From a virus: DNA of 64,000 bases. This document shows positions 3,373 through 60,500 of this stretch, piece after piece. The stretch's first letter is position 1. Each line of letters opens with the position of its first letter. The position numbers and the translations under genes were made by a program. The stretch is taken from the IMG/VR virus record IMGVR_UViG_3300016472_000923, one strand, 5' to 3'. The notes beneath the pieces were generated by a model, which was given only the letters and a program-made list of their open reading frames with translations, searched no databases and was not told the origin of the DNA.

Positions 3373-3800
3373 ACGCAGTAGGCGTATGGTTTTACAGCAT
3401 CAGCACCGACCGTTATCTTTATCTCATGCGAGATGATGCCAAGCACCCAGGATCGTGGGGATTGCCCGGAGGCAAAGCCGAGGCTGGCGAAAGCCTGTTG
3501 GTAGCGATGAAACGCGAGTGTGAAGAAGAGATTGGCGGTTTTCCAGATTTCGTCAAACTCATCCCTTTAGAGATGTTTACCAGCGACGATGGTAGATTTA
3601 GATATCACACATTTTTCTGCGGCGTGGATGAGGAATTCATTCCTCGATTGAACCATGAACACCATGGGTATGCCTGGATTGACAGCGACCATTGGCCAAA
3701 ACCCTTGCACCCAGGACTGTGGTCTACTTTAAACTTTGATGCGGTGCAATCTAAAATCAAGTCTATCACCCAAAGCATGCAGGATCAGACATCGCAATAA
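3369..3800 (+). CDS. Nudix hydrolase
   Basis: Nudix box GGKAEAGESLLVAMKRECEEEIG plus LNHEH. Likely GTG start at 3369 overlapping the gp15 stop (GTGA); the track start is 3315. Confidence 0.85.
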   Translation: MNAVGVWFYSISTDRYLYLMRDDAKHPGSWGLPGGKAEAGESLLVAMKRECEEEIGGFPDFVKLIPLEMFTSDDGRFRYHTFFCGVDEEFIPRLNHEHHGYAWIDSDHWPKPLHPGLWSTLNFDAVQSKIKSITQSMQDQTSQ

Positions 3801-4450
3801 CTGATCCAAGATCTGTAGTCTTGGCAGATGACATTGCGCAGTCTACGCCACTCCGGAGGCATGCGGCTTTCTACTCCTACCAAGATGAATAGTGTGGTAT
3901 CATAAGCAGCCATGACCCGTCCAATATCTGCTACAGTGTGGTCGGTCAACCAAGGCGTATCAAGGCTGGCGCCCAATAAAAAGATTTCACGGTGGCCGTC
4001 AAATGCGGGAAGATACACTGCTGTGGCCTGGCTGTCCATCGATGGTGTCATGGGTATGAGATACAGGCGGCCGGGGTAAGTCAGTACAACCCTGGGTGTG
4101 GTATATACCGTGCATCGTTCTTCGTATCCTTGCGCGACCATGGCATCAATTTCAGATCTTTCTTTACCAATCCAAAAATCTAAAATCATGTCTTGCCAGA
4201 TGCGGCCTGTGGCATAGGTCTGTAATCGTTTTTTACCAAGCAAGCCTCCACGATGCCGTTGCAATCTAGCGAAATCAAACAAGCCTCGATCCGCATCGCT
4301 AATTATGACTGCGGCACGACCTGAGATGTGATGATTTTCAATGGGATTAGGAATCCACTCGCGGCTTTGTTGTTTCATACCACCGGACCAGCGTGTTTCT
4401 GTGACTAGAAACTCGCCGCTGTAATCACGGCGATAGCACGGCAATGTCAT
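3785..4450 (-). CDS. Divergent glycosyltransferase-like (DUF115/MptE or GT29-like fold) protein, paralogue of 14121-14705
   Basis: RAAVII, LQTYATG, TAVYLPAFDGHREIFLLG align with AFVLGNG, VYGCNA, IAMALAALDGHRPIYLLGFD of 14121-14705. Confidence 0.5.
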   Translation of the reverse strand: MTLPCYRRDYSGEFLVTETRWSGGMKQQSREWIPNPIENHHISGRAAVIISDADRGLFDFARLQRHRGGLLGKKRLQTYATGRIWQDMILDFWIGKERSEIDAMVAQGYEERCTVYTTPRVVLTYPGRLYLIPMTPSMDSQATAVYLPAFDGHREIFLLGASLDTPWLTDHTVADIGRVMAAYDTTLFILVGVESRMPPEWRRLRNVICQDYRSWISYCDV

Positions 4451-5217
4451 AGTCGTCCTACTAAGACCTCTATGACACCAGGACCATCGCTATCATGATT
4501 TTCCAGGGCTTTGCCGATTATCACCCCCGGTTGATACAGTGGTGCGGGTAGCACACAGGCATGACCTGGCACATTACTGCTGCACAACACATCACCGCGA
4601 TTGACATAGCCCACTACTTGGCAGGGCACACGGCCCAGCAAGGCCACAGTGACCGCGGTAGGAGAATCTTCAGTAGCGTTCATTATCACCGCTGGTGCGG
4701 TGGATACTACACCGGCTATTTTAGTTGACGCTAGGCTTGAAGATTGTGTCACTTCTTGCTGACCACCAATCTCCAGCACTGTACCAGGTTCATAGATCTC
4801 ATCCGCGATGTACCGTTCTGCGATGTCAGCGTATTGTGCAGATGTGGCCTTGGCAAATACAGTGTTGAAATAACCGGTGGCATTGCCAATATTGCCGGTG
4901 CCATTGGCTTGGCTGTTGACTATGCCAGCCGAAGTAAAAGCTGCTATGCCTGATCCGCCCACTGTAATAGCGATACTGCCACCTGAACTCAACACTTTTA
5001 CATTAGAAGTTCCATTGGATATAGAATCGGCGCTCAAAGTACCAATCTCAGCATCAACATAGGCCACAGTAGCGAGATTGCCGCCGCCACCGGCCGTGGT
5101 ACCATCATGCACTCTCAGCGTCCAGTTGGTAGTGTCCACGGTAATCTCGCCCAAAGCACCAGTAAAGGCGTTGTTTTGTGTGGCAGTGCCTCGGCGATAT
5201 TGTACTTGTGTGCTCAT
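4447..5217 (-). CDS. Short fibre protein: Mtd_N-like N-terminus plus C-terminal intramolecular chaperone (peptidase G2/IMC-like)
   Basis: QYRRGT...FTGALGEITVDT...LRVHDGTTAGG at the N-terminus; ATSAQYADIAE...PGTV...GVVST.PA...VALLGRVPC...IIGKAL at the C-terminus. Confidence 0.75.
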   Translation of the reverse strand: MSTQVQYRRGTATQNNAFTGALGEITVDTTNWTLRVHDGTTAGGGGNLATVAYVDAEIGTLSADSISNGTSNVKVLSSGGSIAITVGGSGIAAFTSAGIVNSQANGTGNIGNATGYFNTVFAKATSAQYADIAERYIADEIYEPGTVLEIGGQQEVTQSSSLASTKIAGVVSTAPAVIMNATEDSPTAVTVALLGRVPCQVVGYVNRGDVLCSSNVPGHACVLPAPLYQPGVIIGKALENHDSDGPGVIEVLVGRL

Positions 5218-14758: not shown

Positions 14759-15448
14759 TTACGAGGTATAGTTCTCGACGATGGCCAACACATAGGTATC
14801 GTTGCCCTGTGTTCCAGAGATGATCTCTGTGCCTTCGTCTGTGAAGAAGTTCACCAGATACTTGTTGTTGGACCAGTCGATAGCATACTTGTTGGTCAGC
14901 TTCTTGATCAGGATGTCCGTGGAATCGCCATTGAAGATCGCGATGTTCATGTTGCCTTGTGTCAAAGCTGATGTGGCTTCATTAGCCAGTGTGCAAACAC
15001 CAACTTCAAACGCTGTACCTGTACCCGAACCTGCTGCACCAGCCACAAAGATGTCACCAGCAGCAGGGTTGGCTTTGGAAGCACCACAGGCTGTCCAGTT
15101 GGTTGTGCCTACTGTGTTGATGATGTAGGAACGACCAACCACTAGATCTTCGTCGTTGACCGATGTGGTATCAGCTACCAGATACTGGCGGCTGCCTTTT
15201 TGTGTGATGATGAAACCAGCGGCTTCAGCGGCACCAGGACCACCTGTGGGTAGATATACCTGAACACGCACCACTGGATAGGCTGCTGTGGCGATAGAAC
15301 CACCACCTAGGTTGTTGGCACCACCTACCACGCCGATGAACTGTGAAGTGTTCAGCGTGTCGGGATAGACTGGATTTGTGAGTTCACCGACATTGTTGAA
15401 ACCAATGTCTTTGGTTGTTGTTTTTTTAATCTTGAGAGGACGTCCCAT
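14759..15448 (-). CDS. Virion structural protein (possible head decoration)
   Basis: MGRPLK start, FIITQKGSRQYLV motif, strong AAGGAGAA RBS, own late promoter and terminator, close to the capsid gene. Confidence 0.6.
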   Translation of the reverse strand: MGRPLKIKKTTTKDIGFNNVGELTNPVYPDTLNTSQFIGVVGGANNLGGGSIATAAYPVVRVQVYLPTGGPGAAEAAGFIITQKGSRQYLVADTTSVNDEDLVVGRSYIINTVGTTNWTACGASKANPAAGDIFVAGAAGSGTGTAFEVGVCTLANEATSALTQGNMNIAIFNGDSTDILIKKLTNKYAIDWSNNKYLVNFFTDEGTEIISGTQGNDTYVLAIVENYTS

Positions 15449-15539
15449 TTGTTTTCTCCTTAAAGAAGTCCGATCGGGGTTCTAGCCCGTACGCGGTGGG
15501 GTTTAGGCGCCGCATAAAACGCAGGATCGCGTTGACAAG
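15449..15539 (-). promoter_or_regulatory. Structured 5' leader (three hairpins) after late promoter TAAATA (15545-15540)
   Basis: AACGC/GCGUU, UAUGCGG/CCGCGUA and CGGG/CCCG stems in series before the SD. Confidence 0.5.
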
Positions 15540-25658: not shown

Positions 25659-25853
25659 GTGGCCATGGTAGATGGCATGGATCAGGAGTCAAAAGAAATT
25701 CGCCGTGAAGCATTGAAATTTGTTTGGTACATGCGTGGCGGTTTGACTTACACCGAAGCCATGAATCTCAGCCACGGAGAACGAGAAATCGTTTCCGGAA
25801 TCATCAAAGAAAATCTTGAGACCACGAAGAAAAGCGGATTGCCTTTCTTCTAA
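25659..25853 (+). CDS. Small gp51-position protein; probably the C-terminal part of a -1 frameshift product
   Basis: WYMRGGLTYTEAMNLS..ER; the frame is open from 25584, through the slippery site; no clear RBS. Confidence 0.7.
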   Translation: MAMVDGMDQESKEIRREALKFVWYMRGGLTYTEAMNLSHGEREIVSGIIKENLETTKKSGLPFF

Positions 25854-26299
25854 GAGACTTGCTGCGCAAGTCTGTTGATTTCGCTTTGCTCATCAACTAG
25901 TGTTAACTCTGAGCGAAGCGAAAGATTCGTCATCATCCAGATAAAGCGGTCACACTTAGCCCGTTGCCGGGCTAAGAAAAATGTGCATCATCCGAGTATC
26001 ACAGTCACACAGCGTTAGAGCTACGGAACCAACTTGTTCCACGCAGGCGGTTGTCCGGTACCTGCTCACTCCGTCTTATCACAACGGCAACACACAGACC
26101 GTACGCTATCACGATCCACATGCCTGAGGTTTTTCTCCTCTCTTTTTGCCTTTTATCCTTTTCCAACAACCAAATCACAGGCCTTACAAGTGATCATCAT
26201 CCCGGGGGGTAGTGGTTGAGTGCCCACGGGTGCGGTGGGTCTTCCGTCACTGTGAACCGTGGTTCCAGATCTAGGGCGCACGAGTTTGGCCTGCGCTAG
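25854..26299 (-). ncRNA. Putative large structured non-coding RNA of unknown family
   Basis: Longest non-coding gap in the window; about nine hand-identified stems, GNRA and YNMG tetraloops, and a G-U-rich helix that forms only on the minus strand. Confidence 0.65.
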
Positions 26300-26736
26300 C
26301 CTTGACTACCTAGTTTGCCTTTGATGTGTGAGCCATGTACTCGAACCTGTATGTGACCATTGTAGTATTCGTCTGATTCCAGTACCTTGCGGGCGAATTG
26401 TTCACGAGCCTCTATATAACTGCATTCAGCCTTGCTTCGGCAGTAATACAATATCTCGCGTGTGAAATTCTCTGTGCCTAACTGCTTGACTTCTTTGTTC
26501 AACTCGTCGTTGCTGCCGTAGTATTCTTGCCAATCGCTGTCGATCTTGCTGCGTATCTTTTTTTTCTTTTTGGTGCCGTTTTTGAGTTTGACTGTTCGAT
26601 ATGTTGTTTTGCGGAACTTGCTGAGTTTCTTGCCTATGTATTTCTTGCCTGATATCTTATTCGTGATGAGATACACGAAGCCCACATACTCTTCGGGTAT
26701 TTCGGTGATCTCTTGTGATTCGAACAGCCATGTCAT
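26296..26736 (-). CDS. Minimal GIY-YIG family endonuclease (Seg-like catalytic domain only)
   Basis: GFVYLITN...KKYIGKK, YYGS, FTREIL, conserved Glu helix SYIEAREQ, YYN. Confidence 0.8.
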   Translation of the reverse strand: MTWLFESQEITEIPEEYVGFVYLITNKISGKKYIGKKLSKFRKTTYRTVKLKNGTKKKKKIRSKIDSDWQEYYGSNDELNKEVKQLGTENFTREILYYCRSKAECSYIEAREQFARKVLESDEYYNGHIQVRVHGSHIKGKLGSQG

Positions 26737-28639: not shown

Positions 28640-30148
28640 TCATGCTACGATTTTGCAATCTTGGTACCTGGCAAGTTCTGGGACATAATCTACCAGATGC
28701 ACACCACGAGAATGATCTAGTCGAACATTGAATTGGAAAAATTCAGATAGATCCTGCGGAATATATCGGGTCTGGAAATAGTTTAGATATCCATCGATGC
28801 TGCTGGCAAACAAAGGATCATTGTGATAACAATCTGTTTGTTGTACTTGCAGCAATGATTCTATCGCCAAGTCTTGGTCAGGAAAAAGATATGGCGAGAA
28901 ATTTTCCGCCATGTTACAATGCACCAATGTGTTTGAAAAATTCTTATCTATAAACTGATACAAGTGGTGCAAATGCGCTATGTTGTAGATACTAACCGTG
29001 GTATTGACATGTACCTTGTGACCGCGAGAGCGCAGTATCTTCCAGTTGTCGATGATATCTTGCCAGGCACTGGGCCATCTGATATAATGATTGAGACGAT
29101 CATACCCGTCAATACTGAACACGAAGTGCAAATTTTGGAAGTGTGGCAATAAAGACAACAGTTTTCCGTTAAAATTTGTACCATTGGTGTTGACCAATAT
29201 TTCGATATGGGTCTTGTTTTGTTCTATACACTGCTGCAAAAATGCATAGAATTCTTTCATCACCGTGGGTTCACCACCTGCTACATAGACCTTGAACGCG
29301 TGGTCTAAATCCACGATGTCAAAACCGGTTTTGTGTTTTTGTCTTGTAATCCGGGTCTTGGGAATTATGCCGATCTGACGGTATTCTCTTTCGATGAGAT
29401 GGCTGTTTTCTGCATTGCAAGTCCGGCATTGCAAATTACATTTGTTACTGGCTCGCACTTCATAGTAGGCTGGTTTTTCTAGCTTGGCAAGATCGTCGAG
29501 ATCGTTTATACCCAGACGATGGGCCCATTCCACTGTTTCCTGCTGTCTTGCACTAATGATACCTTGGCTTTCTAACCTATAGCAGGCCGAACAATGTTCT
29601 GGTATCATCTCGCCTGCTAACATTTTCTCTCGTATGACCTGATATCCGGGATCGTTACGGAAATCTTTGAAGTCCTGTAGTTTGGTCACGGGCTGCAAGG
29701 ATCTACAACACACAGTGGTATGATCGTAGTTGACTAACAGTTCGACAAAAGGAAAAATACAGAAGCTCTTGTTCGATTCTACCAAAGCCGAGAAAAAAAC
29801 AAAGGTCTGTCGCATGGCCTCATCGATGAAACGCACCGGAGCAACAGTCCTGGTCACGGCCTGTATTGTGCGAAAAAATCCATCAGGATGGCTCCATTGT
29901 TCCATGGGTTGATCTAGAACAACAACCTCGTCAAACTCATCCATCAGTCGTACCAGTCTACCAAATTCCATGTCATAGATGCTGCTGTGATAATATCCGG
30001 GCACAGCATAGGATGATTGAACTGCCGGCTGTTCTAATTCAGAAATAAGACCATGGCACACTGAGCCCTCGTGTCTGCTCAAAAGCCTTGTGCGAATATC
30101 TGTATCTTCGGTATTATTCCCCAAGCACAGTATTTTTTTTGACATCAT
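28640..30148 (-). CDS. Radical SAM protein with twitch/SPASM-like Cys cluster and unknown N-terminal domain
   Basis: CNLQCRTC (CxxxCxxC), GGEP, TNGT, SIDG..YIR; FCIFPF...CC...CSAC upstream. Confidence 0.9.
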   Translation of the reverse strand: MMSKKILCLGNNTEDTDIRTRLLSRHEGSVCHGLISELEQPAVQSSYAVPGYYHSSIYDMEFGRLVRLMDEFDEVVVLDQPMEQWSHPDGFFRTIQAVTRTVAPVRFIDEAMRQTFVFFSALVESNKSFCIFPFVELLVNYDHTTVCCRSLQPVTKLQDFKDFRNDPGYQVIREKMLAGEMIPEHCSACYRLESQGIISARQQETVEWAHRLGINDLDDLAKLEKPAYYEVRASNKCNLQCRTCNAENSHLIEREYRQIGIIPKTRITRQKHKTGFDIVDLDHAFKVYVAGGEPTVMKEFYAFLQQCIEQNKTHIEILVNTNGTNFNGKLLSLLPHFQNLHFVFSIDGYDRLNHYIRWPSAWQDIIDNWKILRSRGHKVHVNTTVSIYNIAHLHHLYQFIDKNFSNTLVHCNMAENFSPYLFPDQDLAIESLLQVQQTDCYHNDPLFASSIDGYLNYFQTRYIPQDLSEFFQFNVRLDHSRGVHLVDYVPELARYQDCKIVA

Positions 30149-45100: not shown

Positions 45101-45586
45101 AGCGGACTCAATGATTATAAGATGATATCTGACAACGTGGTCTTGAATTCTGTGTTGTTCAAGCCCTTGTTTGGTGCCAAGGCCGCGCCTGAATTGCGTG
45201 GCGTGATCAAGGTAGTTCGGGCTCCCAACACCACTGCTTCTGTGAGCGAAATCAAGAGCCAGGTAGTGGCCAACATGAATGATTATTTCAGCATTGACAA
45301 ATGGGACTTTGGTGACACATTCTTCATGAGCGAATTGTCTGCTTTCTTACATGAGCGTATTGGATCAATCATTTCTTCAGTGGTGTTAGTGCCACTCAAC
45401 CCTCTCAAGACATTTGGTGATCTTTATGAAATCCGTTCAGCCCCAAATGAAATTTTCGTCAACGCAGTCACAGTGGCCGATGTTGAAGTCATCGATGCAC
45501 TGACACAGAGTGAATTGCGCACAACTACACCAGTGTCGGGTCTCTACCCAACTGAAAATTCTCTCAGCCAGACAGGTGAATACTGA
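42107..45586 (+). CDS. gp6: Baseplate wedge subunit (gp6-like)
   Basis: DFETLR, FNDYIESS, ENFLDTAERRDSV..LA....Y.P, FGDG, ETIEEIKQRAP..Y.TQNRMV..EDY; start ATG 42107 (track start 42101). Confidence 0.88.
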   Translation: MAKTARQTAIFGVEDWKRLYQTFREADFQSYDFETLRKSFVDYLRVYYPETFNDYIESSEFIALLDVMAFMGQALAFRNDLNARENFLDTAERRDSVVRLANLVSYTPKRNEAAQGFLKVFSVSTTENVIDYNGINLANITVDWNDPTNPDWLEQFTQIINAALVDSQKFGRPGNEQNILGVRTSEYAINLVPGFLPVLPYTSTVDGINMPFEAVSSTSEGRDYIYEPAPRPSGVFNILYRNDQLGFGSDNTGFFFLFKQGVLQNQDFNLAEALTNRTVNINIEGCNDQDHWLYKLDDLGSIADEWDYVESIYAGAVEQLPPDQRQLYSITSRANDQITLTFGDGVFAEIPVGTFRAYVRASNGLEYIINPEEMQAVNLQISYVSRFGRLETLTLVCGITEPVSNAQARETIEEIKQRAPARYYTQNRMVNGEDYNNFPFTKYNSIIKSKAVARSAVGTSRYIDLTDVTGKYSSTNIFASDGLIYRENQLPTFDFDWVNRNEIVDVINNSVEPLLPSRGFIQFYYDPTNFPRVSFTVFQQAWFQSTRLVNETTGYFYINTPAQPQPIGSYTSGANKYITQAALIQFVPPTGYYFDANNRLVAGVPTRADEKLSIWATVTAVVLDGTNNGLGNFTDGTGPVTINNFVPTGALVNQVIPKFVTDLPSALEQSMIQQIELYRDFGLGYDYLGTVTGTAGTWYLITSTNLAKDAAFSLTNAGNTTGAGLDASWLIQFVTDGVSYTVTNRQLDYLWASVIQTRFFYDGSQEVYDSRTGLTITDYIRALKTNSRPDSNEPLAGDVLMDIIAQPVESDGYVNDYQVVVSYSDSDGDGVADDPDFFDTLVAPTVNASQKKVFLELLTDTDGLERYLPVEEGRINTSYATLDEVELVKAQFVNGQLFYTTTSGNFYELVVGTVNGTIQRTLVEQTDFISRTGRQGLYFQYRHNSPLTNVIDPGATNIIDLYIVTQEYYTQYQNYIKDTTGTVPEPAIPTIAQLTTAYSGLNDYKMISDNVVLNSVLFKPLFGAKAAPELRGVIKVVRAPNTTASVSEIKSQVVANMNDYFSIDKWDFGDTFFMSELSAFLHERIGSIISSVVLVPLNPLKTFGDLYEIRSAPNEIFVNAVTVADVEVIDALTQSELRTTTPVSGLYPTENSLSQTGEY

Positions 45587-48500
45587 TGGTACAACGCCGC
45601 ACAGTTGATCTACTTCCGGAAATATTTCGCACCGAAACCAATCGCCAGTTCCTAGCCGCAACACTAGATCAACTGACCGCAGAACCAAATCTCAAACGAA
45701 CCCAAGGTTATGTGGGACGCCGGGTCGGCCCGGGTGTGAACCCTGCAGACAATTATGTCACAGAACCCACGGCCACACGCCAGGATTACCAGCTTGAACC
45801 GGCTGTGACTTTCTTTGAGCCCGAAACCAACCGAGCAGTGGATGCCATCACTTATCCGGGCATGATTGATGCGTTGAATTTGCTGGGCGCTGATACCCAA
45901 CGGCAAGATCGCTTGTGGCAGAGCCAGTACTATACCTGGGACCCATTTTGCGATCTAGACAAATTTGTGAACTACAGCCAGTATTATTGGCTGCCCGCTG
46001 GACCCGATTCAGTGGATATATTCACTGGCACAGTGCCTTTGACGGATGCATGGGAAGTCACCCGTGGCCAGTCTGCTTATACTTTCAGCGATGTACCTGG
46101 TCAAAATCCCACGCTGACCTTGGTGCGCGGCGGCAACTACACATTCACAGTCAATCAAACTGGCACACCTTTCTATATACAAGCAGCGCCGGGAATATCC
46201 GGACTCATGCCCGGGACCAACAATATCAGTAGCAGGACTGTGTTGGGTGTTATCAACAACGGCGAAGACAATGGCACAGTGACTTTTGATGTGCCGTTGA
46301 AAGACGCCCAAAGTTTTTACACCAACATGCCATTTATCGGACAAGCCGCAGGTAAACCTGCTGGTACAGTGGACCTTGTCACCGATCTCAAGTTTGATCA
46401 GATCAACAATGTTTATCTCAATTCATTCCTGGCCGCCAATCCCTCGGGCATAGACGGGGTGCGCGGACTAGATGGGTTGACTGTGGCTTTCTTGAACAGC
46501 GAACCCGATGCTGAATCCGGTGGATGGTTGCGAACCACACAGTTTGATCCTACGACCCAGATGACTTTTACTGTGCCAACTGGCACACGGTCCGGAGAGA
46601 TCTCTGTAGTCAGTGCCACTGTTGACACTCTTAACGATACAGCTACTTTTTATTTTGCTGCGATCTCAGGCAGTGCACCGTTCACGCCCGGCTGCCAGAT
46701 ACAGACCACTGGTGCCAGCCCATCATCTTACAATGGCACATGGACCGTGCTGTCTTGCACAGTGGATTCTGTGACAGTAGATGCTGTTGGCCTTATCACC
46801 ACTGCCTGGACATCGGGTGGATCGTTGCAAGGACTCGGCCGATTCCAAAATCTAACAACCACGACCCCAGGAGCAGGAGTGGGCGCATTGTTGACCGTGG
46901 ATTTGCCTCCGGGATCAGGATCTTATTCAGATCTAGGCACGACCATCTCGGTCGCTGCTGCAGGATCAGGATATGCTGTGGGCGACATCATCGTTATCTC
47001 CGGCAGCCAACTTGGAGGTACATCACCGGCCAATGACCTATCATTGATAGTGACAGCGGTCAGTGAAAATGGACAGATTGGCAGTTTTGACACACAGACT
47101 TATGATCAGACCTCTGTGTTGCCAGTGGCCGATCGGTACAGCGTCTGGCTGATACAATATCAATACGACAACGACGGTAATGCCATCCTTAATCTCACTT
47201 CGGTATTGGCTGTGTCACAGCTGACCAAGTTCCGTGTGCTGTTTGGCGATCAATATGCCAACACCGCTTGGTACAAAAACGCATCAGGATATTTTGAACA
47301 GATTCCGTTGCTCACAGCCAGTCTGGATACCCTTTATTACCAAGATGCGACCAATCCTTTGTTGTTTGGCAAACTGCAGCTGGTCGACCAAGCTGATTTC
47401 ACTCCCATCAACATCGACGACATCATTGGTGCAAAAAATTATACCAGCCCCAATGGGGTGATCTTTACCAATGGACTGAAGATTCAATTCCGGGGAACCA
47501 CCAATCCCAGTAACTATAGCAATCTTGAATATTACATCGAAGGTGTAGGCAGCGGACCTGGTGTTGATGCCAGGGTGGGCTTCATCGACGGAGAAGCGTA
47601 TTTTGGGCCTTGGCATTATTATCTAGGTCAAAAACTCACAGGATCGGTACATAGCGATACTACATTCCAGCAGTACATCTACGACACTGTTGCTGAAAGT
47701 CTGTCCAATCAAGGAGCAGGATATCCTGAGGGCGCTCCGTTGCCTAATGAACCACAGTTGGGAGCGACCATTGGCAACGGTATAAAACTGCTGCCGGTCA
47801 CTGATTTCGTCACTCCTGAAACTTACACAGTCAGCGCCACGATACCGTTTGACAGCCTGCCCTACGATGTGGGCAATTATGATAGCACGCTGAACGCTCC
47901 GGTTGTGCCCGATTATCTCACAGTCAACCGGGCCAGCCGAGATCTCAACGCTTGGACACGCAGCAATCGCTGGTTCCACAGAGATGTCATACAGGCCACT
48001 GCTGACTACAATGGCCAGATCGCAGTGTTTGACAATGCTGCCAGGGCTAAGAGACCCGTGATTGAATTCCGGGCTAACATGAGATTATGGAACACTGGCA
48101 CCCAAGGCAAGCAGCCGGTCAACATCATAGATTTTACGCAACTCAATGCGCTGTTGAATGTCAACGGCAGCACTTTTTATGCTACCGATGGATACCCATT
48201 GGTCGACGGCTCCACGATAATCTTTGCTGCTGATCAAGATCCGGATGTACGCAACCGTGTGTATCTCGTGAGATTCATTGACCCCGACGGTGTTAGTACC
48301 ACGGCCCCCATCATTGATCTGATTCCCTTGCCGTTTGGCCAGGCCCTGGTAGATCAGAATGTTGTCATACTCAGCGGCAACACCCTGCAAGGCAAATCCT
48401 ATAGATTTGATGGAACGGATTGGGTATCGGCCCAGCAAAAAACCAGCGTCAATCAAGCACCACTGTGGGATGTATTTGATAGTCTGGGGCGCAGCCTGGG

Positions 48501-51500
48501 CGATAGAGATGCCTATCCATCTACCACATTTGAAGGAACAAAGTTATTTGGGTACGCTTTGGGCGGAACCAGCCAGACCGATGAGGTGTTGGGCTTTGCT
48601 CTCAAGTATCTCAACATCAACAATGTGGGCGATATAGTATTTGACAACTATTTTTACAATGATACTTTCTTGTATGTGCAGAACAATGTCAGCACTACAG
48701 AAAATATAAGTGCAGGCACAGCCAGACAGTACATCGATCGCACCCTGTTTTCTGATCTCATTGGTTGGCAAACAGCAGCACAAGAAAATCGCAGCCGCCA
48801 GATTTTCCGATTCGTGTTTGACGGCACACCATTGATCCTGGATGTACCCATAGATCAGGAGTCGGTGTTCGCTCCCTTGCAGATATTCCAAGGCACAGAG
48901 TTTATAGATCCCACGCAGTACAGTGTTACTTTGCCGGGAGATGGTAGCACCGTGATTACCTTGACGGATTCTCCGATCATCGGTGAGATCATCGAAGTAC
49001 AGGCCATCAGCGATGTTGCGTCCGCTGTGGCGTTTTACCAAGTTCCTTTGAATCTGGAAAATAACCCTCTCAACGAGGACAGCTCCTCTTTTACTCTGGG
49101 AACCATCCGCACTCATTATCAAGGTATCGGACAGAATCTGCGTACCATCCAAGGGCCCATTGACGGTGCCAACAACACTCGTGACCTTGGAGACATCCTG
49201 ATCTATGGCGACAACATCGTCCAGCACAGTTCACCTTTGACGCTAGCGGGTAGTTTCCTGCGCCGGCGGCAGTATGAAGCCGCAGCCGCCATCCAGTTCA
49301 ATAGCAACGAGTATCAGAAATTCAAAGCCAGACTCATCTCATTGGCAACCAACGGTGACTATGTCAATAACACACCCACACAGGTGCTAGATACAGTTTT
49401 AGATGAGATATCATCTACCCGTACTGACATCAGTCCCTTCTACTGGTCGGATATGTTACCGCATGGTGGCAACTACATCACGACGACTTACACCTATTCA
49501 GTCATATCCACACCAACATTTCCTACTCAGCTGACATATAATTTTACTCAAAGCAATTATCAAGCATTGAGCGTTTATCTCAATGGCACGCTGCTACAGC
49601 GTGGCATCGATTACACTGTGGCCGAAGACGCAGCCAATTTCACCATCACGGCCACATTGGCCGTGGGCGATATCATAGTTGTTAGAGAATATTCCACAAC
49701 TTATGGCAGTTATGTTCCTAACACGCCAACAAAGATGGGCCTTTACGGTGCCTATCGACCAGAGATATATCTCGACGAGACCTATGTCACTCCCACACTG
49801 TGTATCCGTGGGCACGATGGGTCAGTCACTGTGGCCTATGGCGACTATAGAGATGATGTCTTGCTGGAATTTGAAAATCGTATCTATAACAATCTCAAGA
49901 TCGTGACACCTGTGCCGTTGACTGTAGACGAAGTTGTACCTGGCCAATTCCGCGAGACTGAATATTCACTACAAGAAATCAATACCATATTGGCTCCTGA
50001 TTTCCTCAGTTGGATTGGCTGGAACAAACTCAACTATACCGAGCAGACTTATCTCGGCGACAACGGCTTTACCTGGAACTACAGCCAAAGTGCTAACAAG
50101 CTGTCGGGAGAACCACTACTGGGCGCTTGGCGCGGCATCTACAACTATTTCTATGACACCATCTATCCCAATACCAGACCTTGGGAGATGTTGGGATTCA
50201 GCGAAGAGCCCACATGGTGGCAAGATTACTATGGTCCAGCACCTTACACCTCAGGCAACACAGTGCTGTGGCAGGATCTCGCCCAAGGACTGGTACGAGA
50301 TCCCAATGGTGAGTATGTCCTGCCTCAATATGTGAGACCAGAACTTTTATCTGTTATTCCCAGTGATACCGAAGGTGCGCTGATTCCACCTATAGATTCT
50401 ACTGTAGGAAACTATGACCAGACATCGTTCCGTCGTAGTTGGACCTTTGGCGATGATGGCCCTGTTGAAAGCTCCTGGCGCACTTCATCGGCCTGGCCGT
50501 TCGCAGTCATGCGACTGCTGATGTTGACCAAACCTGCTAAATTCTTCAGTTTGTTTGCAGATAGAGACCGGTATGTGTTTGATCAGACTTTGGATCAATA
50601 TCTATGGAATCAACGCTACAGACTTAACTCTTCGGATCTTGGCCCTCTCTATGGAGATGGAACCAGCAGAGCCAGCTACATCAACTGGGTCATAGATTAC
50701 AACCGACAGTTGGGAGTCAACAGCACCGATGTACTCACCGACTTCTTGGCCAACACCGATGTACGCCTGGCCTGGCGTGTGGCTGGATTTACAGACAAGC
50801 GTTTGATGAAGATCTATACTGAGAGATCCACACCCAACAGCCAGAACGCCAGTCTGCTGCTGCCGGACGAAAGCTACCAGATCCTGTTGTACAAAAATCA
50901 GCCTTTCCAACAAACGGCCTATAGTTCTATCATAGTACAGACCACTACAGATGGTTGGCAGGTCTTTGGTTACAGTGCATTCGCTCCTTATTTCCAAATC
51001 CTCACCAGCATACCCAACGGAAATACTTTCTTGGTCGAAGCCGGCGGCGCATCGGCCAGGATCGCCTTGGATCACAGTGATCAAGTGGTGCAGGTACCTT
51101 ATGGATATACTTTTACCAATCGTACAGCGGTATGCGATTTCATCTACAGTTATGGATTGTTCCTTTCGCAACAGGGATTTGTCGTCAACACCCAAGAAAA
51201 TGGTTACATCATGGATTGGGTACAGATGTGCCAGGAATTCTTGTATTGGTCCAATCAAGGCTGGGCACCGAATTCTATAATCAATCTCAACCCTGGCGCT
51301 GTAAAAATATCAGTCACGAGCCCTGGCGCAGTGGTGGATAGCCTAGTAGATCTAAGGCCGGAAAATCTCGTACTCAATCAAAATCGCCAACCGTTGCCTA
51401 GCAGCGAACTCGTGATCGAACGGTTGGACAACACATTTGTTGCACAGACATTGAGCTCCAACACTATCAACTATCTCAATGTCAACTTGACCGCATATGA

Positions 51501-54500
51501 ACATCTAGTGGTCTTGGACAACGTGTCTATATTCGCTGACTTGATCTATCAACCTGTCACTGGCGCACGACAGAGCAGGGTTCTGGTGTCGGGCTACATT
51601 TCAGGTGATTGGAACGGCACAGTCAATGCTCCTGGATTCGTCCTCAATCAAAGTGGTAGTATCATTGAATGGGTGCCCAATCAGAAATATACCAAAGGAC
51701 AGATCGTAAAATTCAAGAACGAATATTGGGCTGCATCCACAATCATAGAACCATCTCAAGAATTTGATTACACCTTGTGGCTCAAGAGCGATTTTGACGA
51801 GATCATGCAAGGACTCCTGCCCAACGCTGCCAACGCCAGTGATCAGTTGGCCCAGGCATACTCAGTGTTCTCTGCCAACCTAGAATCCGAAGTGGATCTT
51901 TTCAGCTATGGACTCATTGGGTTCCGGCCTAGAGAATACATGCAGGCCCTTAATATCAGTGATGTCAGCCAGGTACAATTGTACCAGCAATTCCTCGGCA
52001 GTAAAGGCACACTGAGATCGGCAGAAATATTCAGCTATGCTGACCTAGGCAAAGAAACAGCGCAGTACGATATCTATGAGTATTGGGCCATCAACCGGGC
52101 AGAATATGGCGCCACTGCCAACAGAAATTATATCGAACTAAGGCTTAAACAGCAGAACCTTTTGTCAGATCCATCCTTGATACAGGTAATTGATCCTGCC
52201 CAGACCAGCGAAGCAGATGAAACTGTGCTGATCAGTGAAATCTGGAAGTCCAGCGACGTCATAACATCGCCCGATTATCTGCCTACCACGCTGATATCAG
52301 CTGCAGATGCTGTGTTCCCAACTGCAGGTTATGTCAATCTAGATGATGTTGATTTTTCTGTCATGGAGTTGCGTAATGCCACGCCGGCAGAACTGTCAAT
52401 TACTGGCAGCGGTGACACAGTCTGGGTGGCCAAAGTCAACAACTACGACTGGAGTGTTTATAGGATCCAGTCGTTGGTTCCTGTTGTCGTGGCTGTATCT
52501 GATAACCTTGATGGTCAATCATTGGTACAGTTCAATCAAAATCATGGCTTAGTGGCCGGTGACTGGTTGATCATCCGCGAATTCAATGATACGGTCAACG
52601 GCGCCTATAGAATAACGAGTGTGCCATCGTTATCCACTGTGCTGATCAATCTTTTGATCACAGGACAGCAGACTACTATCACAGGCACTGGCATAGCTTA
52701 CACATTGCAGACTGCAAGGGTGGCCCAGGCATCTGATGTAGCCAGTCTACCTTATGCCAACATATTGACAGCGGGCAATCGTGCCTGGGTCGACGATGAT
52801 GGTACTGGACATTGGGAAGTTTTGGAAAAGACCGATGTTTTCTCTCTCAACGACCAAACGCAGTTCAGTCCCGAAACACCTCTTGCCAATGATCGGTATG
52901 GAACCAGTTTGACACAAGGATTTTACAATCTGGCAGCCATGGTTGGTGCACCCGGCTATTTGGTCGCCGGTGACGACAGCGCACTGAAACCGGCTGGAGG
53001 TGTGTATCTTTATACCAAGGCCTCAGCCACTGCTGGGTTTGAATTTAATTACATCCAAATACTCACCACGCCCGACACAGCAGGTTACGGTTCCAGCATG
53101 GACATGGGCGATCAGACTTGGGCAGTGATCGGAGCGCCAGGCAGCGATGCCGAACGGGGCTATGCAGCAGTGATCTATAATCCGCCTACGAGTACAGCTT
53201 TCACACAGACACAATTGTTACTGGGAGCTCCTGAGGATCGATTTGCCACCAGCTTATCTGTCACAAACAATGAAAGATGGATCTATGTGGGCGCCCCCGG
53301 CAACGATCGTGTGTATGCTTATGCACGCATCGATGTTGAATCTCAATCTGTGAGATATGTAACCACTGGATTGACAGCCACATTCAACTACAGTAATAAT
53401 ATCGTAGTAGACGAATCATCTGCAGCAGATCAATTGGTAGTCCTGCTCAACGATCAAGAGTTAGTGCCAGGAGTTGATTATATCACTGGTGTTGGATCTG
53501 TGTTGCTGACCTCCACTCCTGTGGTTGGACAAACTTTGGTGATATCTCGTCGCGCCAACGTCACATATATTGGTGATGGCAGCACCACTACTTTTTCTGT
53601 TGACAACATTTACACCCTTGCCGATCTGGTCAATCAGCCTGAAGCAGTAACGGTGTTCGTAAATGATGTGCTGCAGCGGCTAGACATAGATTATGTCATC
53701 ACAGGTGCTGGCGAAGTTGATTTCATGGTCGCACCCACGCTGGGATCTCCCATCAGGCTCTTGTCGGGTACATATTTCCGTCGAGTACATACCATACAAG
53801 GGACCACCTTGAGCTCACCAGCACAATCGGGCTCGGAATTTGGTCGTTCTGTGGCTACCACTACCAATGGTCGATCGGCCATCATTGGTTGCCCCTATCA
53901 AGATGTCACTGTTGACGGTGATACTTTTGTCGATGCCGGCCAGGTATTCATCGTCAATCGCTCAGTGCAAAATCTTCAAGTCACTGATGCATCGACACAG
54001 ACTTATGCTTCAGTTAGAGATTTAAGCGCGACCAATGCTCCTATCTCTGTGCAAGTCAATGGAACATATCTTGTAGAGGACAACGGTTATAATCTCGCAC
54101 CGCAATATTCGGTGAACTATGCTGCAAATACCGTGACCATCGATGGTATTGATCTCTCGGTAGGTGATGTGATAACCATAGAATCCAACAACTTTGATCT
54201 CGTGCAGGTGATCTCATCTGACAGTCCATCCACCGGCGCGCAGTTTGGCTGGGACGTCGATCAGTGCATCAATAATTGCAGCGTGTACATCGGTGCCCCT
54301 CAAGACAGCACTATATTGCCCAAGGCCGGCCGAGTGGAATTTTGGCAGAACAGTGCCCGGGTGTTTGGTACTATCACTAGCCCAGTGGCCGGGGAAATAT
54401 CATTGACTGCTGATCAATACATCAGCATCAATGGTTATTTGGTACAACTATCTGACCCTCCCAATCACGACAGCAATGCCACATATATCGCTGGAGACAT

Positions 54501-57500
54501 TGTAGCGTCCGGCAGCAACCTGTTTATCGCACAGAGCTCAGTGCCCTCTGGCACAGCCATTACCGAAACAGCTTACTGGCGACCAATCAACTGGAGCAAG
54601 GTCTTATCTCAGGACATAATCGATGCTGCTGTGCCCAATGCCACAGCCTCTGTGACCGCCGATCTTGATTTCATTGGAGATGCGACTACCAAGCAATTCA
54701 CCATTGGTTCCTTGTATGACAGCACCGACACTCCATTGGTCTATGTCAATAATGTAAAGAAAACTGTCAACGTCGATTACACAATAGACACGGTGGAAGG
54801 CACATTGGATTTTGTCACTGCTCCTGCCAGTGATGCAGTGATCACAGTGATTGGCAGTCAGTTGGTAGTATCAGTGATCAACGCAGCGGCAGCACCCGCA
54901 GGTAACAAGTTAGAGATAGTGCCTGGCAGTTCAGCAGATGGAACCACTGCTGGAACCCTGTTCCAGGATTTGGAATTTGATACCAATGATTATGTCGCTA
55001 TACAAACCATCACCAGTCCTTTACCACAGGACTATGCTTACTTTGGTTACAGTGTGTTTATCAGCGACCGAACAACAGATCTGGTGGTAGGAGCGCCCAA
55101 TGCATCAGTAATACAGCCCACCACCTTTGACGACAATACCACAGTGTTTGATGCTCAGAGCACTACATTCTTCAACAGCATCAGCAACAGCGGCGTGGTT
55201 TATACTTTTGATTACCTTTCATCGTCCACAAACACACAGGCCAATCCTGGACAATTTGCGTTTGGTCAACAGATCTATGATCAAAATATTGACAGCGGCG
55301 ACGAGTTTGGCGCCGCATTGAATTATACCACTGGTGTGCTGCTGGTGGGATCTCCTGGTACCGATGTCAACGGAGAAACCAATGCCGGTGACATCCACGA
55401 GTTCAACAATGTATCTCAACTTCCTGCTTGGACAGTGATCCGTCGTCAGACCCCAGTGGTAGACATCGATCTCATGAATACCATATTCATCTATGATCGG
55501 ATAACCAACGCTCCCAAACAATACTTTGATTTCTTTGATCCTTTACAAGGCAAACTCTTGGGTGTAGTCCGCCAAAATATTGATTATATTGGTGCGGTGG
55601 ATCCTGCGGCCTACAATGTAGGATCATTGAACAATTACGGTCAGCGATGGGCACAAGATCGTGTGGGACAGATGTGGTGGGACACTAACAACTGTCGTTT
55701 CATCGATCCCAATCAAGACGACATAGTATATGCCAGCCGTCGCTGGGGACAGTTGTTCCCCGGCAGCACAGTGGATGTCTATCAGTGGACAGCAAACAAT
55801 GTGCCACCAGCCCAGTACACAGGATCTGGCACAGTCAAGGATGTCAATAGTTATAGCGTGACCAGTGCTATCAATGAGCAAGGGTTATTTGAAACCACTT
55901 ATTACTATTGGGTCCGCAGTGTGCGCCAGGTCAACAGGGCCGCAAGAAAGACCCTCAGTGCCGAGACAGTGGCTCGCTATATCGAAAATCCCAAAGCCTC
56001 GGGCATATCGTATCTCGCTCCTATCAATGCCAGCACCGTGGCCATATACAATGGCTTACCATATATCCAGGCCGAAGATACCATACTGCACATAGAGTAC
56101 GACCAAGAACTCAATGACGATGCAGTGCATACAGAGTTTGCGCTGATACCCCAAGATCGAGCCGACGGATTCTTGGACGCACAACTTTACAGGAAATGGC
56201 AAGACAGTTTCTGTGGTGTTGATTCGACTGGCAATCCGGTACCTAACCCCTTGGCACCCATCAGCCAAAAATATGGCACGGCATTCCGACCACGGCAGAG
56301 CATGTTCGTCAACAGGTTCCTGGCCCTGGAAAACTATCTCACGCAAGCGAATTCCGTAATGGCCGCGCTGCCGATAGCTGAAATTAGAGAATTTCCGTTG
56401 CTGTTCAGCGAAGAACCAATACCACCCGCTGGATCAGGCGCGTGGGATGCTCAGGTAGCCAATTACACAGAGCTCACATATCAGAATCTAGATCAGGTAC
56501 CTCTGGGATATCTGTATCTAGTGGATATTGATTCCAACAACGATGATCTTTGGACCATATATGAAGTCACACAAGGCTTGACGCCCGGCAGCAGAGAACT
56601 CGCATTGGTCAGGGTCCAAAATTACAATACTCGGTTGTATTGGGATTACATCGATTGGTATGCCGAAGGATTCAGCGCTCTTGACACTGTGTCTGTTGAA
56701 GTGGCTAACTATGCAGATCTCGCATCTCTAAGTGTGTCTTCGGGTACGCTTGTCAAGGTCACTAACAATAATCGCGGCAAATACGAAATCTATCAATATG
56801 ATGGCAGCATCTGGATACGGGTAGCACTGGAAGATGGAACCATAGCCATTAACCCTGAAATCTGGGATTACGGCATAGGGCGCTTTGGGTTTGATGTTGA
56901 AGTGTTTGATGCGCAATACTTTGACCAGGAGCCAGTGATAGAAACTCGCAAGATCATCCAAGCTTTGAATGAAGAGATCTTCATCGATGATCTAGCCATA
57001 GAACGCAATCGCTTGCTGATTTTGATGTTTAACTACATCCTGGTCGAGCAAGAAGCTCCATTATGGTTGACCAAGACTTCCTTGGTCGATGTCGATCACA
57101 AAGTTCGTGAACTGCTGCCCTTCCAGATATATCGTGCTGATAACCAAGATTTCGTATTGAATTACATCCAAGAGGTCAAACCTTATCACACGCAGATAAG
57201 AGAATTCAATCTCATATATCAGGGCAGCGATGTATTCCAAGGCACTGTGACAGATTTTGATGTGCCTGCCTATTGGAATACCGCCGAGGGCATGTTCATC
57301 AGTCCTGTGCTAGATGACAATGCCAACGTGCCTTTGAGCACCACATCCAGTGTGCCCAGTTCCGATCCTATATGGCAGACTTTGCCTTGGAGCCAATGGT
57401 TCCAAAATTATCTGCTGACCTTTGAAAGCATCACTGTGATCGATGGAGGCAGCGGGTATACAGACCCACCAGAAGTCATCATCGGAGAAGCATGGCAACC

Positions 57501-60500
57501 GTCTACTACCTATGCACAAGGTCAACAGTTTTACTACGATGGTAGACTGTACACAGTGCAACAACCCGGAGTGACCGGTATTGTCGCCCCGACCTTCTCC
57601 TCTGGCACAAGGCTCAACGGCACGGCTCTGCTGGCCTATGCTGGCGAGCAAGCACAAGCTACTGCCATCGTGAGTTCCGCAGGTGTAGTGCTCAGCATCA
57701 CACTGACCAATGCTGGATCCGGATATCTAACTACTCCCATGATCGTCCTGTCAGGAGGAAACGGTACTGGTGCCAGGGCTACTGCAGTCTTGGCAAATCC
57801 GTTGGTAAGAGGGTTGACAACCACGATCAAGTACGATCGTTACCAATATTCATCTGATATCACTGATTGGACAGCCAATGTCAGTTACAGCCAAGGCACT
57901 CAGGTCCGGTATGCTGGAGAGGTTTGGGAAGCTGATGCCACTGTGTCATCTGCAGCATTTGATCCCGACGATTGGACAGTGGTGCCAGCCGGGGACCTCA
58001 GTGGCGTAGATCGCACACAAGGTTACTACGATCCATCAGTGAACATGCCTGGCCGAGATTTGGCCTTGCTGATGACCGGCATTGACTATCCGGGTGTGCA
58101 AGTAGATGCGCCTGACTTTGATGCCAATGCAGGATTTGATGTGGGTAATTTTGATATCTACCCATTCGACAATCTCATACTGGGCCCGGAGGGCCTGCCC
58201 ACATATGATCCATCCATACTGGATGCCATCTATGAAAGTTCGTTCACAGATATCTACCTTGGTACGAGAGTCACTGACATCAATGTAGATGGTGGACAAT
58301 TCGTTGATACCTACAGCAGCCATGCGCCAGAAGAACTCATACCAGGTGCTATATTTGATACCTTGGATCTAAGAGTTTACACAACACCCGGTGCCGACTG
58401 GACTGGAGATGGTCATGGATTCCCATTGTATGTGATCACTGCCCCATATGATGGATCTCCCATTTCGTGGTCCGGCCTATTAGACAACCCATTTGTGGTC
58501 TTAGTCTACAATGAAAGTACAGGACAGCGGCTTATCGAAGGCGAAAATTATACCGTAGATTGGGTTAATTTTACTATCACAGTCACACAAGGAATTACCT
58601 TGGGTAATTTTTTAACAGTCAAGGTATTTGGCCTGGGCGGAGGCAATCAGATTTTCGTAACCAATGTCGTGGGCGATGACACAGATTCATACACCATTGA
58701 CATCGATTACAACCTCATCAACAGCATGGTGATATTTCAGGACGGTGTGGAGACAGCTGATTACACTTACGCGCCACGCTACGAAACCTCCGGTGTGACC
58801 ACTGGCATTAGTTCAGTTTCCGGTCAGGTACTGGCAGTGACCAGCACAGTGGGTATAGTAGAAGGCAGCTTGGTCGGCAACCCCGGCTATACTTCGGGTC
58901 AGACAGTGACTTCTATAGTGGATTCGACCAGCGTGGTTACCAGTGCTGGACCGGACTCTGCACCTTCGGGTCAGGTCACATTCCGTCCCTATACCTATAC
59001 TACTCAGATTGAGTTTGGATCAGAGATTCCAGCGACTTCTCGCCTGTCTATATCGGCTTTGGGCAGTGGCGATCCGACCACCAACAGTTGGAGCACCCCG
59101 GTGGTTACCAACTACACTGCTGCCAGTGGATTGACATTCCCGTTGACGGTAGCACAGACACAGGGTACCAATCCTGTGAACTTGATCGTGGATGTAAATG
59201 GACTGAGAGCCAGGCCGGCCGAAGGCGTGCAATATATCAGCGATGGCAGCACTGTCACATACACTTTGCCTTTGCGCGGAGGATACCTCACTGGCGGCTT
59301 TAATCTGGGTAACGTGGTCACTGGCAATGTATCGGTCTACATCGATAATGATCCTTTGCCCAATACTGACTGGGTACTGGATGCCTATGTGGCTAACAGT
59401 GAAACACGCAGTATCACACTGGATTCGGCCGCTGGCAACGACAGCGTGATCTTGATCAGCGTGGATTACGCTGCTGATTATGTTGTGAATGGCAACAATC
59501 TCATATGGAAGACTTCTGATCCCAATGTGGTCGGTCCCAGTATTTCTGTGGTTCCAAGCATAGGGGATACTGTCAGCATAACAACTTTCAATGACACTGC
59601 GGAGCAAAACTTGTTGACGCAAGTTTTCCAAGGTCCTACCACAGAAGGAGTTTTTGTAGGCGAAGGATTCGATTTTGGAACTGCCAACTCCTCTCCGGGC
59701 AGTTACGACTATGCTGGAATCTACAGCACCACTGGTTCAAACGTCATCGTGGGCGCAGATAGACTGTGTGATGGTATCGTTTACACGATCATCAACTCTG
59801 GCAATACAAACTTTACCTTGTATGGCGCAGCGTCAAATGCAGCATTGACAGTGTTCACTGCCAACGTCACTGCCAATGGCAATGTGGCTATTTTTGGTAC
59901 AGGCACAGTCAGCACCTTGGCCTACGAGCGATCTGCAGCCAGCGATGCAAACAATGGACAGCCAGACAGTTTTGACTTCGCTAACGTGGTGCCTGTTGAA
60001 ACCAATCGATTTGACATAGGACAGACCATCACCGACGACGGTCGATTGACTGTCACCCTGGATTCCTATTACCTTACCCCGGGACAAGACTTTGTCACAG
60101 AGGGCAGCAACTTGGTAATTTTAGGCCCAGTGATCTCTTCGGCCATGGTGTTATCTGTGACCAGCATGACCAATACTGCTATACCGGGCTCGGAAGCCTT
60201 CCGTATATTCCAAGACATGCGGGGTCAGCAGCTGTCATACCGTATCACTGCAGAAACCAGCACTGCGCTCGCTGCCGATCTGTCTGCTGTCGGGGACGTG
60301 ATCTATGTAGAAAACGCCAGCCACCTGAGCGAACCTAATCTGGAGTTGGGCCTGCTAGGCCAGATTACGATAAATGGAGAACGCATCCTTTACAGGCAAC
60401 GAGACACAGTGGCCAACACTGTCAGCGGCCTCCGTCGTGGTACTTCTGGCACAGGCGCAGCTGATCATTCAGCAGGCACACCTGTGTATGACATTGGCAT

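Follow-up and report, generated by a model that had tools for sequence, protein, structure and literature searches.

What purpose might be served by a pair of short units that share their flanking words, enclose different inserts of equal length and lie in a gene-free gap of a phage genome? In the window considered here (the whole 64-kb stretch of DNA that was analysed), the initial annotation had read, on the minus strand, a first unit (GUGUGAC 26010-26004, UGUGAUACUC 26003-25994, GGAUGAUG 25993-25986), a hairpin (CUUAGCCCG-GCAA-CGGGCUAAG, 25976-25955) and a second unit (GUGUGAC 25955-25949, CGCUUUAUCU 25948-25939, GGAUGAUG 25938-25931). When the minus strand is re-read, all of these letters and coordinates prove correct, as does the presence of AUGAUGA in two of the three GGAUGAUG copies. 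What had been made of them was that the two 10-nt inserts (N10-1 and N10-2) might be guide segments, or that the units might be two symmetric, K-turn-like binding sites.

The twin units are a real feature of a phage RNA that has been catalogued in part. The composite GTGTGAC-N10-GGATGATG has exactly two matches in the 64 kb, both at the module, without mismatches and 55 nt apart, where some 1e-4 exact matches would be expected by chance (our own arithmetic, for 15 fixed bases and 128 kb, both strands); the single words GGATGATG and GTGTGAC show no enrichment in the window. The repeat also recurs in relatives, the two-unit architecture being parsed in 158 of 160 profile-matched loci. The third GGAUGAUG reported at 26202-26195 exists as well, inside a match to the Rfam Polynucleobacter-1 model (model positions 'GGAcGaagauc'), and was considered as a third unit. 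This was rejected, the element being GGACGAUGA or GGAUGAAGA in relatives regardless of the variant carried by the twin copies; because its state is independent of theirs, it lies outside the repeat system.

Genomic setting and homologues of the module

The window covers the structural-gene region of a T4-like myophage. According to Pfam, it encodes a gp15-like sheath stabiliser, the gp23 capsid protein, a prohead protease and gp25-like and gp5-like baseplate parts; further products are the gp20 portal, a baseplate hub protein and Rad50-like and Mre11-like (gp46/gp47-type) proteins. The module sits in a 440-nt gap without genes. Upstream of it lies a gene for a 146-aa GIY-YIG (SegE-type) nuclease (26296-26736, minus strand; Pfam PF19835, E = 1.9e-32, with the domain at residues 3-129), which is treated here as a neighbour and not as a part of the RNA, and on the other side of the gap are two convergent plus-strand genes, ending at 25853. 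The GIY-YIG gene starts 10 nt past the stop of the Rad50-like gene and no promoter-like site was found between it and the gap; the RNA is probably transcribed by read-through from these two upstream genes. There is no tRNA gene in the 64-kb window.

When IMG/VR was scanned with the GTGTGAC-N10 composite, mostly single matches were returned, together with one locus that has both units (L011). This relative is 91 % identical across the entire gap; most of what differs is compensated within base pairs, one of them a U-G pair that can form on the minus strand only. A conserved core word fetched 10 viral and 5 metagenomic loci, and a protein search with the GIY-YIG product, which matched at least 580 relatives of the gene, added 160 further loci. 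About 160 homologous loci were collected in this way, yielding 121 unique modules; a profile of the module matched 106 and later 160 loci. Since these uncultured contigs were fetched via conserved DNA words or GIY-YIG similarity, the sample describes one family and is no unbiased census. Among cultured phages, blastn against 50,697 records gave no match to the region, and a core-word scan of bacterial and archaeal genomes gave eight chance matches in Streptomyces and one contig with the phage module. The latter (L079, CAZCDW010000003.1; 56.7 kb) has both the GIY-YIG gene and the full module. Its label is that of an uncultured Bifidobacterium MAG, into which a phage contig was probably binned.

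A conserved RNA of about 447 nt

Judged from how its homologues vary, the module lies within the 3' half of a single conserved and structured non-coding RNA, ~447 nt in length (26301-25855, minus strand), that occurs in freshwater T4-like phages. Its predicted order is the Rfam domain, two small hairpins, a core pseudoknot, a variable hairpin, the two-unit module, an H-type pseudoknot and a terminal hairpin, which makes it, by comparative prediction, a large and multiply knotted RNA; it is seen in at least 160 uncultured T4-like phage contigs.

The 5' domain (26164-26301, minus strand, 138 nt) is Polynucleobacter-1 (RF01718), for which cmscan matches the full model (1-141) at 108.3 bits (gathering score 37). 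The domain shares bases with the stop codon of the GIY-YIG gene, and the third GGAUGAUG lies inside it. The same model scores 78-118 bits in all ten viral homologues scanned, with the same 3' half following in each, and in every one of the 10 IMG/VR homologues checked it precedes the conserved core by ~90 nt. The end of the model (26164) falls ~154 nt before unit 1, leaving the module bases 26010-25931 outside it, and in the homologous loci checked the 3' extension with the module is always attached to the motif.

The two small hairpins that follow (26098-26140, minus strand; GAGG/CCUC at 26140-26126 and AUCGU/ACGGU at 26115-26098) are supported by compensatory changes in L011, where the first becomes GGGG/CCCC and the second AUCUGU/ACAGAU. 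A 38-codon ORF in this part (26121-26005), whose stop lies within GUGUGAC, was considered as a small protein gene and rejected, its ATG being lost in L011 and the changes there being those of compensating pairs.

The core (26043-26085, minus strand) probably folds as a pseudoknot in which GUUGU (26085-26081) pairs with ACAAC (26054-26050), crossed by the pairing of GCAGG (26065-26061) with CCUGC (26047-26043). We infer this fold from compensations read across homologues: the first helix occurs as GUUGU/ACAAC, GUCGU/AUGAC, GUCAU/AUGAC and GUUGU/AUAAC, and the second changes from GCAGG/CCUGC to GUAGG/CCUAC in L071. The variable hairpin GGAAC-AAGUUG-GUUCC (26025-26040, minus strand) has its stem changed from GGAAC/GUUCC to AGAAC/GUUCU in L011 and is much longer in some relatives, with insertions of 40-60 nt in L053 and L058.

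Beyond the module, the 3' H-type pseudoknot (25874-25920, minus strand) is borne out by tests of cognate against shuffled partners for both of its helices. S1 joins CGCUUCGCUC (25920-25911) to GAGCAAAGCG (25891-25882; z = -2.4, 7 of 1000 shuffles as good) and is a perfect 11-bp helix with compensating changes in L056, and S2 joins GUUGAU (25897-25892) to AUCAAC (25879-25874; z = -21). The terminal hairpin, AGACUUG-CGCAG-CAAGUCU (25855-25873, minus strand), keeps its stem while changing its sequence in L011, L054 and L055 and is likely to be the 3' end of the RNA; in a terminator scan it also scores as a plus-strand terminator for the convergent gene.

Anatomy of the two units

Unit 1 opens with a D-like word, GUGUGAC (26004-26010, minus strand), located by reading the window and by pattern search; its conserved core is GUGAC, and in relatives it is GUGUGAC, AUGUGAC, AAGUGAC or AAAUGAC, rarely with GUGGC or GUGAU. 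Then comes N10-1 (25994-26003), which on the basis of helix testing and column entropy divides into UGUG (26003-26000), the 5' strand of a stem termed H1, an unpaired AU and the tail ACUC (25997-25994). Next stands the first of two 7-mers that we call the twin boxes, GGAUGAU (25987-25993, general form NNAUNAN), recognised by its identity to the second. The unit closes with a G, with CACA (25985-25982) as the 3' strand of H1 and with a linker of five U (together 25977-25986), as read from a comparison of strands among homologues.

H1, a stem between GAC with the beginning of N10-1 and the bases that follow box 1, is established by comparing cognate with non-cognate duplexes (z = -8.5, none of 2000 shuffles being as good). 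Of 84 unique sequences, 73 form an H1 of 4 bp or more, and the 11-14-nt loop of the stem presents ACUC together with box 1. Its strands change from UGUG/CACA in the window to CUGC/GCAG in L011, GACAU/AUGUC in L054, GUGACUU/AAGUCAU in L055 and UUAGC/GCUAA in L084. Because the register of H1 shifts between clades, a register-free test was used, and for the same reason RNAalifold run on the MAFFT alignment sees the central hairpin only.

That central hairpin (25955-25976, minus strand; 9 bp with a GCAA loop) is supported by RNAalifold, which finds 7 pairs in 89 unique sequences, 4 of them changed on both sides (columns 66-82, for example, hold UA 39, AU 16, CG 14, GU 12 and GC 6), and by the cognate test (z = -13), in which it served as the positive control for H1. 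The GNRA loop noted by the initial annotation is present in the window and is not kept elsewhere, relatives having GCCG, GCUA, UGUGC, UUAAC and others. As an intrinsic terminator the hairpin was rejected: the U-run stands 5' of it on the minus strand, the plus strand has an A-run after it, and the terminator scan gave no match.

Unit 2 starts where the hairpin ends, the first G of its D-like word GUGUGAC (25949-25955, minus strand) being the last base of the hairpin. From the alignment of modules, N10-2 (25939-25948) consists of a variable part, CGCUUU (25948-25943), and the tail AUCU (25942-25939). Twin box 2, again GGAUGAU (25932-25938) and defined by its identity to box 1, has the central hairpin on one side and the 3' pseudoknot on the other, in sequence that appears to be single-stranded; the base right after the box is G in the window and A in most relatives. 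In many relatives (e.g. L013, L028 and L086) CUGNAUACUCG stands 3-12 nt after box 2, where the window has ACGAAUCUUUCG; it matches the 'CUG..ACUCG' of unit 1, as if it were part of a third unit that lacks a box.

Do the inserts vary while their flanks stay fixed, as guides would? Only in part. The first six bases vary, with 53 distinct versions in N10-1 and 47 in N10-2 among the 121 unique modules. The last four do not: in 78 unique unit pairs CUC of N10-1 and UCU of N10-2 (positions -3 to -1 relative to the box) have zero entropy and the A that precedes each is near-invariant. The box flank, in turn, itself varies between phages. That ACUC and AUCU are both fixed and unit-specific suggests that each unit also has a fixed structural contact of its own. 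For the variable six bases of N10-2, a duplex test found no cis partner among the bases after box 2, the H1 linker, N10-1 and the upstream sequence; against the whole RNA in 24-column blocks the best z was about -2.5, near the last hairpin of the 5' domain, and single-column covariation gave nothing. A short single-stranded recognition role is possible for this stretch. Pairing between N10-1 and N10-2 looked attractive in L054, L057 and L071 (GUUCA/UGAAC, GAUGC/GCAUC) and was rejected as unsupported overall (z = 0.2).

Two boxes that change as one

With the parse anchored on neighbouring features only, so that the 7-mers themselves were left unconstrained, box 1 equals box 2 in 120 of 121 unique modules (88 of 89 in an earlier set), and the single exception differs at the last position. 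This identity is not that of an invariant word. Ten variants occur (GGAUGAU, GGAUAAU, AGAUAAU, GGAUGAA, AGAUGAA, AGAUGAU, AGAUGAG, GAAUGAU, GCAUAAU and AGAUCAA), in which A3, U4 and A6 never vary, and at the four variable positions the copies agree in 100, 100, 100 and 99 % of modules, compared with 53, 95, 51 and 60 % when copies are shuffled. Identity between the units is raised also at position -5 (62 vs 26 %), at -6 and at +8. Ten variants imply at least nine changes, each of them made in both copies; a tree of the GIY-YIG gene together with the 5' domain calls for no fewer than 27 changes of box state, a count that recombination between the module and the tree sequence may have inflated.

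For each variable box column, moreover, the best mutual-information partner is its twin column (0.94, 0.18, 1.04 and 0.84 bits, the next best reaching 0.13-0.57), and no other column of the 447-nt RNA covaries with the boxes. In the rest of the RNA and in flanks of up to several kb, neither copies nor complements of the box that a locus carries are enriched, and the 64-kb window holds no complementary, extended or palindromic box sites beyond chance.

Several other accounts of the word were tried and set aside. Base composition does not explain the identity: loci with GGAUGAU have a G+C of 0.45 as compared with ~0.39 in the others, and the ranges overlap widely. A self-complementary dimerisation site formed by AUCU and RGAU was rejected, the GAAU and GCAU variants being uncompensated. 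K-turns, CsrA sites, Hfq ARN repeats and -10 promoter elements all have base requirements of their own, and each of these readings was rejected because it needs bases that are variable here. 

A codon display like that of T-box RNAs, in which a specifier codon with a purine after it stands in a loop, next to a platform for the tRNA elbow and a UGGN element for the tRNA 3' end, was considered as well. The AU-N-A part of the box, in which N is G, A or C, would fit a codon followed by a purine; a codon leaves the identity at positions 1, 2 and 7 unexplained.

What might read the boxes?

The account towards which we lean, with somewhat better than even confidence, is that the twin-box module offers two equivalent recognition sites to one shared trans-acting reader, within a phage RNA of ~447 nt. 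The working parts would be the two 7-mers NNAUNAN (here GGAUGAU) rather than the N10 inserts. Unit 1 would present ACUC and its box in the loop of H1, unit 2 would present AUCU and the same box in a stretch without detectable partner just before the 3' pseudoknot, and the same word would thereby be displayed twice to a single reader, perhaps two protein subunits, perhaps two copies or sites of a complementary nucleic acid. A change in one box would be tolerated only together with the identical change in the other, because both are offered to the same reader. That identity, rather than complementarity, has been kept through repeated change, and that no partner is found in cis, is best explained by such a shared factor, whose existence and nature we infer from this pattern. 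Counting against this account are the lack of complementary or palindromic sites in the 64-kb window, the finding that no residue of the GIY-YIG protein follows the state of the boxes, and the fixed tails ACUC and AUCU, which hint at a separate structural contact in each unit. Of the two symmetric binding sites that had been suggested at the outset, the idea thus survives for the 7-mer box; the K-turn form and a role for N10 in it are not supported.

It is also conceivable, if unlikely, that the boxes with flanks of up to ~16 nt form a bivalent base-pairing device that evolves together with its target. The RNA would then bind the same nucleic acid twice, as two copies or at two identical sites; candidates are small RNAs of host or phage, tRNA loops and symmetric DNA sites recognised in both arms. 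It might act as a scaffold or sponge, or it might direct the small nucleases and recombinases that adjoin it, as their targeting subunit. If true, a new class of programmable phage RNAs would be at hand.

What is the significance of such an arrangement? Only the first third of the RNA is catalogued, and no function has been assigned since 2010. It is rare for a short word to change repeatedly and yet to stay the same at two places; such a pattern implies that something reads the word twice, and it turns an orphan motif into a testable problem. Were the reader a nucleic acid, the RNA would be a new kind of sequence-programmable phage RNA; were it a dimeric protein, it would form part of a new RNA-protein particle of T4-like phages.

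Could the boxes instead serve the architecture of the RNA only, as tertiary-contact or local motifs that are alike through an old internal duplication? Both units are built from a D-like word, a spacer, AYYY and a box, a common plan that suggests duplication; the A, U and A at box positions 3, 4 and 6 are invariant, and ACUC and AUCU are fixed and specific to their units. Independent motifs would, however, be expected to diverge at their free positions, and four such positions have stayed identical in 120 of 121 modules through at least nine variant changes, with no other column of the RNA covarying. We consider a purely intramolecular role improbable.

A smaller chance still is given to the possibility that the boxes and their flanks (up to ~16 nt) guide the adjacent minimal GIY-YIG nuclease to a DNA or RNA target by base-pairing. 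The joint change of the boxes is what pairing with a common target would produce, the 146-aa protein consists of the GIY-YIG domain only, and of 33 informative loci retrieved by DNA pattern alone, independently of its gene, 32 have a homologue of that gene immediately upstream of the RNA. In L056, a 209-kb contig, the gene in the same place encodes a different small nuclease, of the PD-(D/E)XK type (3776-4294, plus strand; PF24608, E = 2.4e-25). This last observation cuts both ways. Homing-type nucleases are known to settle beside conserved genes, and here small nucleases of two unrelated folds occupy one slot beside the RNA, while in L032 (1350-2183, plus strand) and L033 the GIY-YIG gene and the RNA are separated by an inserted 277-aa ORF without a Pfam match, which enlarges the gap to ~1140 nt. 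Two folds and an inserted ORF fit homing nucleases next to a conserved gene better than a functional RNA-nuclease pair, and settlement of this kind is the simpler account of the neighbourhood. Furthermore, no GIY-YIG residue was found to track the state of the boxes, no target-like site was found in the flanks or in the window, and a 7-nt word is short for targeting.

Only marginally less probable is an origin of the identity at the DNA level, by templated misalignment or short-patch conversion between quasi-repeats 55 bp apart and without any shared reader. The repeats are direct, close and alike at 10 or more of 16 positions, and templated mutation at quasi-repeats has a precedent in phage T4. 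Against this, the three bases 5' of the box (CUC vs UCU) and the base 3' of it (G vs A) stay different in almost all relatives, so that a conversion tract would have to span exactly the 7-mer, with almost no flanking homology.

It is very unlikely that the repeats act in the double-stranded gene itself, as operators or nuclease-recognition sites: they are direct, at a fixed spacing and beside nuclease genes, but their surroundings evolve as RNA helices with strand-specific G-U pairs, and box 1 is placed precisely in the loop of H1. Least credible is the initial proposal of dual programmable guides, with the N10 inserts set between fixed boxes in the style of box C/D, TIGR or IS110 RNAs, since, even though the first 6 nt of each insert vary beside conserved flanks and those of N10-2 lack a cis partner, the last 4 nt of each are (near-)invariant, the variable part of N10-1 is paired in cis, as a strand of H1 (which largely refutes the idea for that insert), the best complement to either unit within the 64-kb window (14/20) is at the level of shuffled queries (mean 14.1), Pfam finds no Nop-domain, fibrillarin, L7Ae, IS110 or reverse-transcriptase gene among the 37 window ORFs, and RF01718 is the sole Rfam match in the region at E values up to 10.

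Comparison with known RNA systems

The Polynucleobacter-1 motif was described from fresh water as a candidate cis-regulatory RNA with no assigned function (Weinberg et al. 2010, PMC2864571); in the searchable literature it is mentioned only there, as a table entry that covers the 5' motif. The present RNA shares with it the first 138 nt (108 bits, above the gathering score of 37) and the freshwater setting, whereas its core pseudoknot, twin-box module and 3' pseudoknot are absent from Rfam. Nor is it a 5' leader, because it stands at the 3' end of an operon and faces a convergent gene.

With box C/D sRNAs the module has in common two short inserts between short conserved words and, in the window, the AUGAUGA sequence. 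The analogy fails in other respects. The word order is reversed, D-like, N10, C-like, instead of C, guide, D' ... C', guide, D. The module has no CUGA, and the tandem G-A pairs of a K-turn are not possible throughout, the GA step being missing from the boxes GGAUAAU, AGAUAAU, GCAUAAU and AGAUCAA, i.e. from 58 of the 121 unique modules. A box C/D guide, finally, is an unpaired stretch of 10-12 nt, whereas N10-1 pairs in cis and has 4 of its 10 nt invariant. The initial annotation rightly saw neither a CUGA box D nor a Nop-domain gene in the window, and Pfam scans of its 37 ORFs (E up to 1e-3 or 1e-2) found no gene for L7Ae, a Nop5/Nop domain, fibrillarin or Tas, i.e. no partner protein.

IS110 bridge RNAs and TIGR-Tas resemble the locus in that a structured RNA with paired short variable segments lies beside a small DNA-acting enzyme; in both comparisons the difference is that the variable segments of the module are partly paired in cis. 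TIGR arrays, moreover, are tandem series of many repeat-spacer units, whereas the module has exactly two units in the window and in relatives. In place of an IS110 recombinase, the module has a GIY-YIG neighbour (PD-(D/E)XK in L056), and no target or donor match was found in its flanks.

The nearest functional analogy may lie with the decoy and multi-seed sRNAs of bacteria, which repeat one motif in their loops, such as the GGA loops of CsrB and RsmZ or the C-rich loops of RsaE and RNAIII. There, as would be the case here, a short word is shown repeatedly, in a hairpin loop and a single-stranded stretch, a display suited to a dimeric protein or to a common complement. The module differs in having two copies only, within a knotted RNA of 447 nt, and in that its word changes between phages, always in both copies. 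A decoy for CsrA or RsmA in particular requires an invariant GGA, in contrast to the AGAU-, GAAU- and GCAU-type boxes found in 40 of the 121 unique modules.

Other features of the window and its relatives

A second catalogued RNA, the Rfam freshwater-2 motif (RF02980), occurs in the window at 15446-15534 (minus strand; 66.7 bits, gathering score 49.9), between two minus-strand ORFs of the capsid-side module, and the motif is present in L058 too. A gene for a 502-aa radical-SAM protein (28640-30148, minus strand) lies between the Rad50-like and Mre11-like genes, and in L056 another radical-SAM gene stands directly downstream of the RNA. Directly after the baseplate genes follows an ORF of 5086 codons (45586-60846, plus strand), the first 3000 residues of which have no Pfam match at E values up to 1e-3. 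At 4447-5217 (minus strand), beside large ORFs of tail-fibre size, a 256-aa protein is encoded that begins with an Mtd_N domain (major tropism determinant; PF18454, E = 1e-12).
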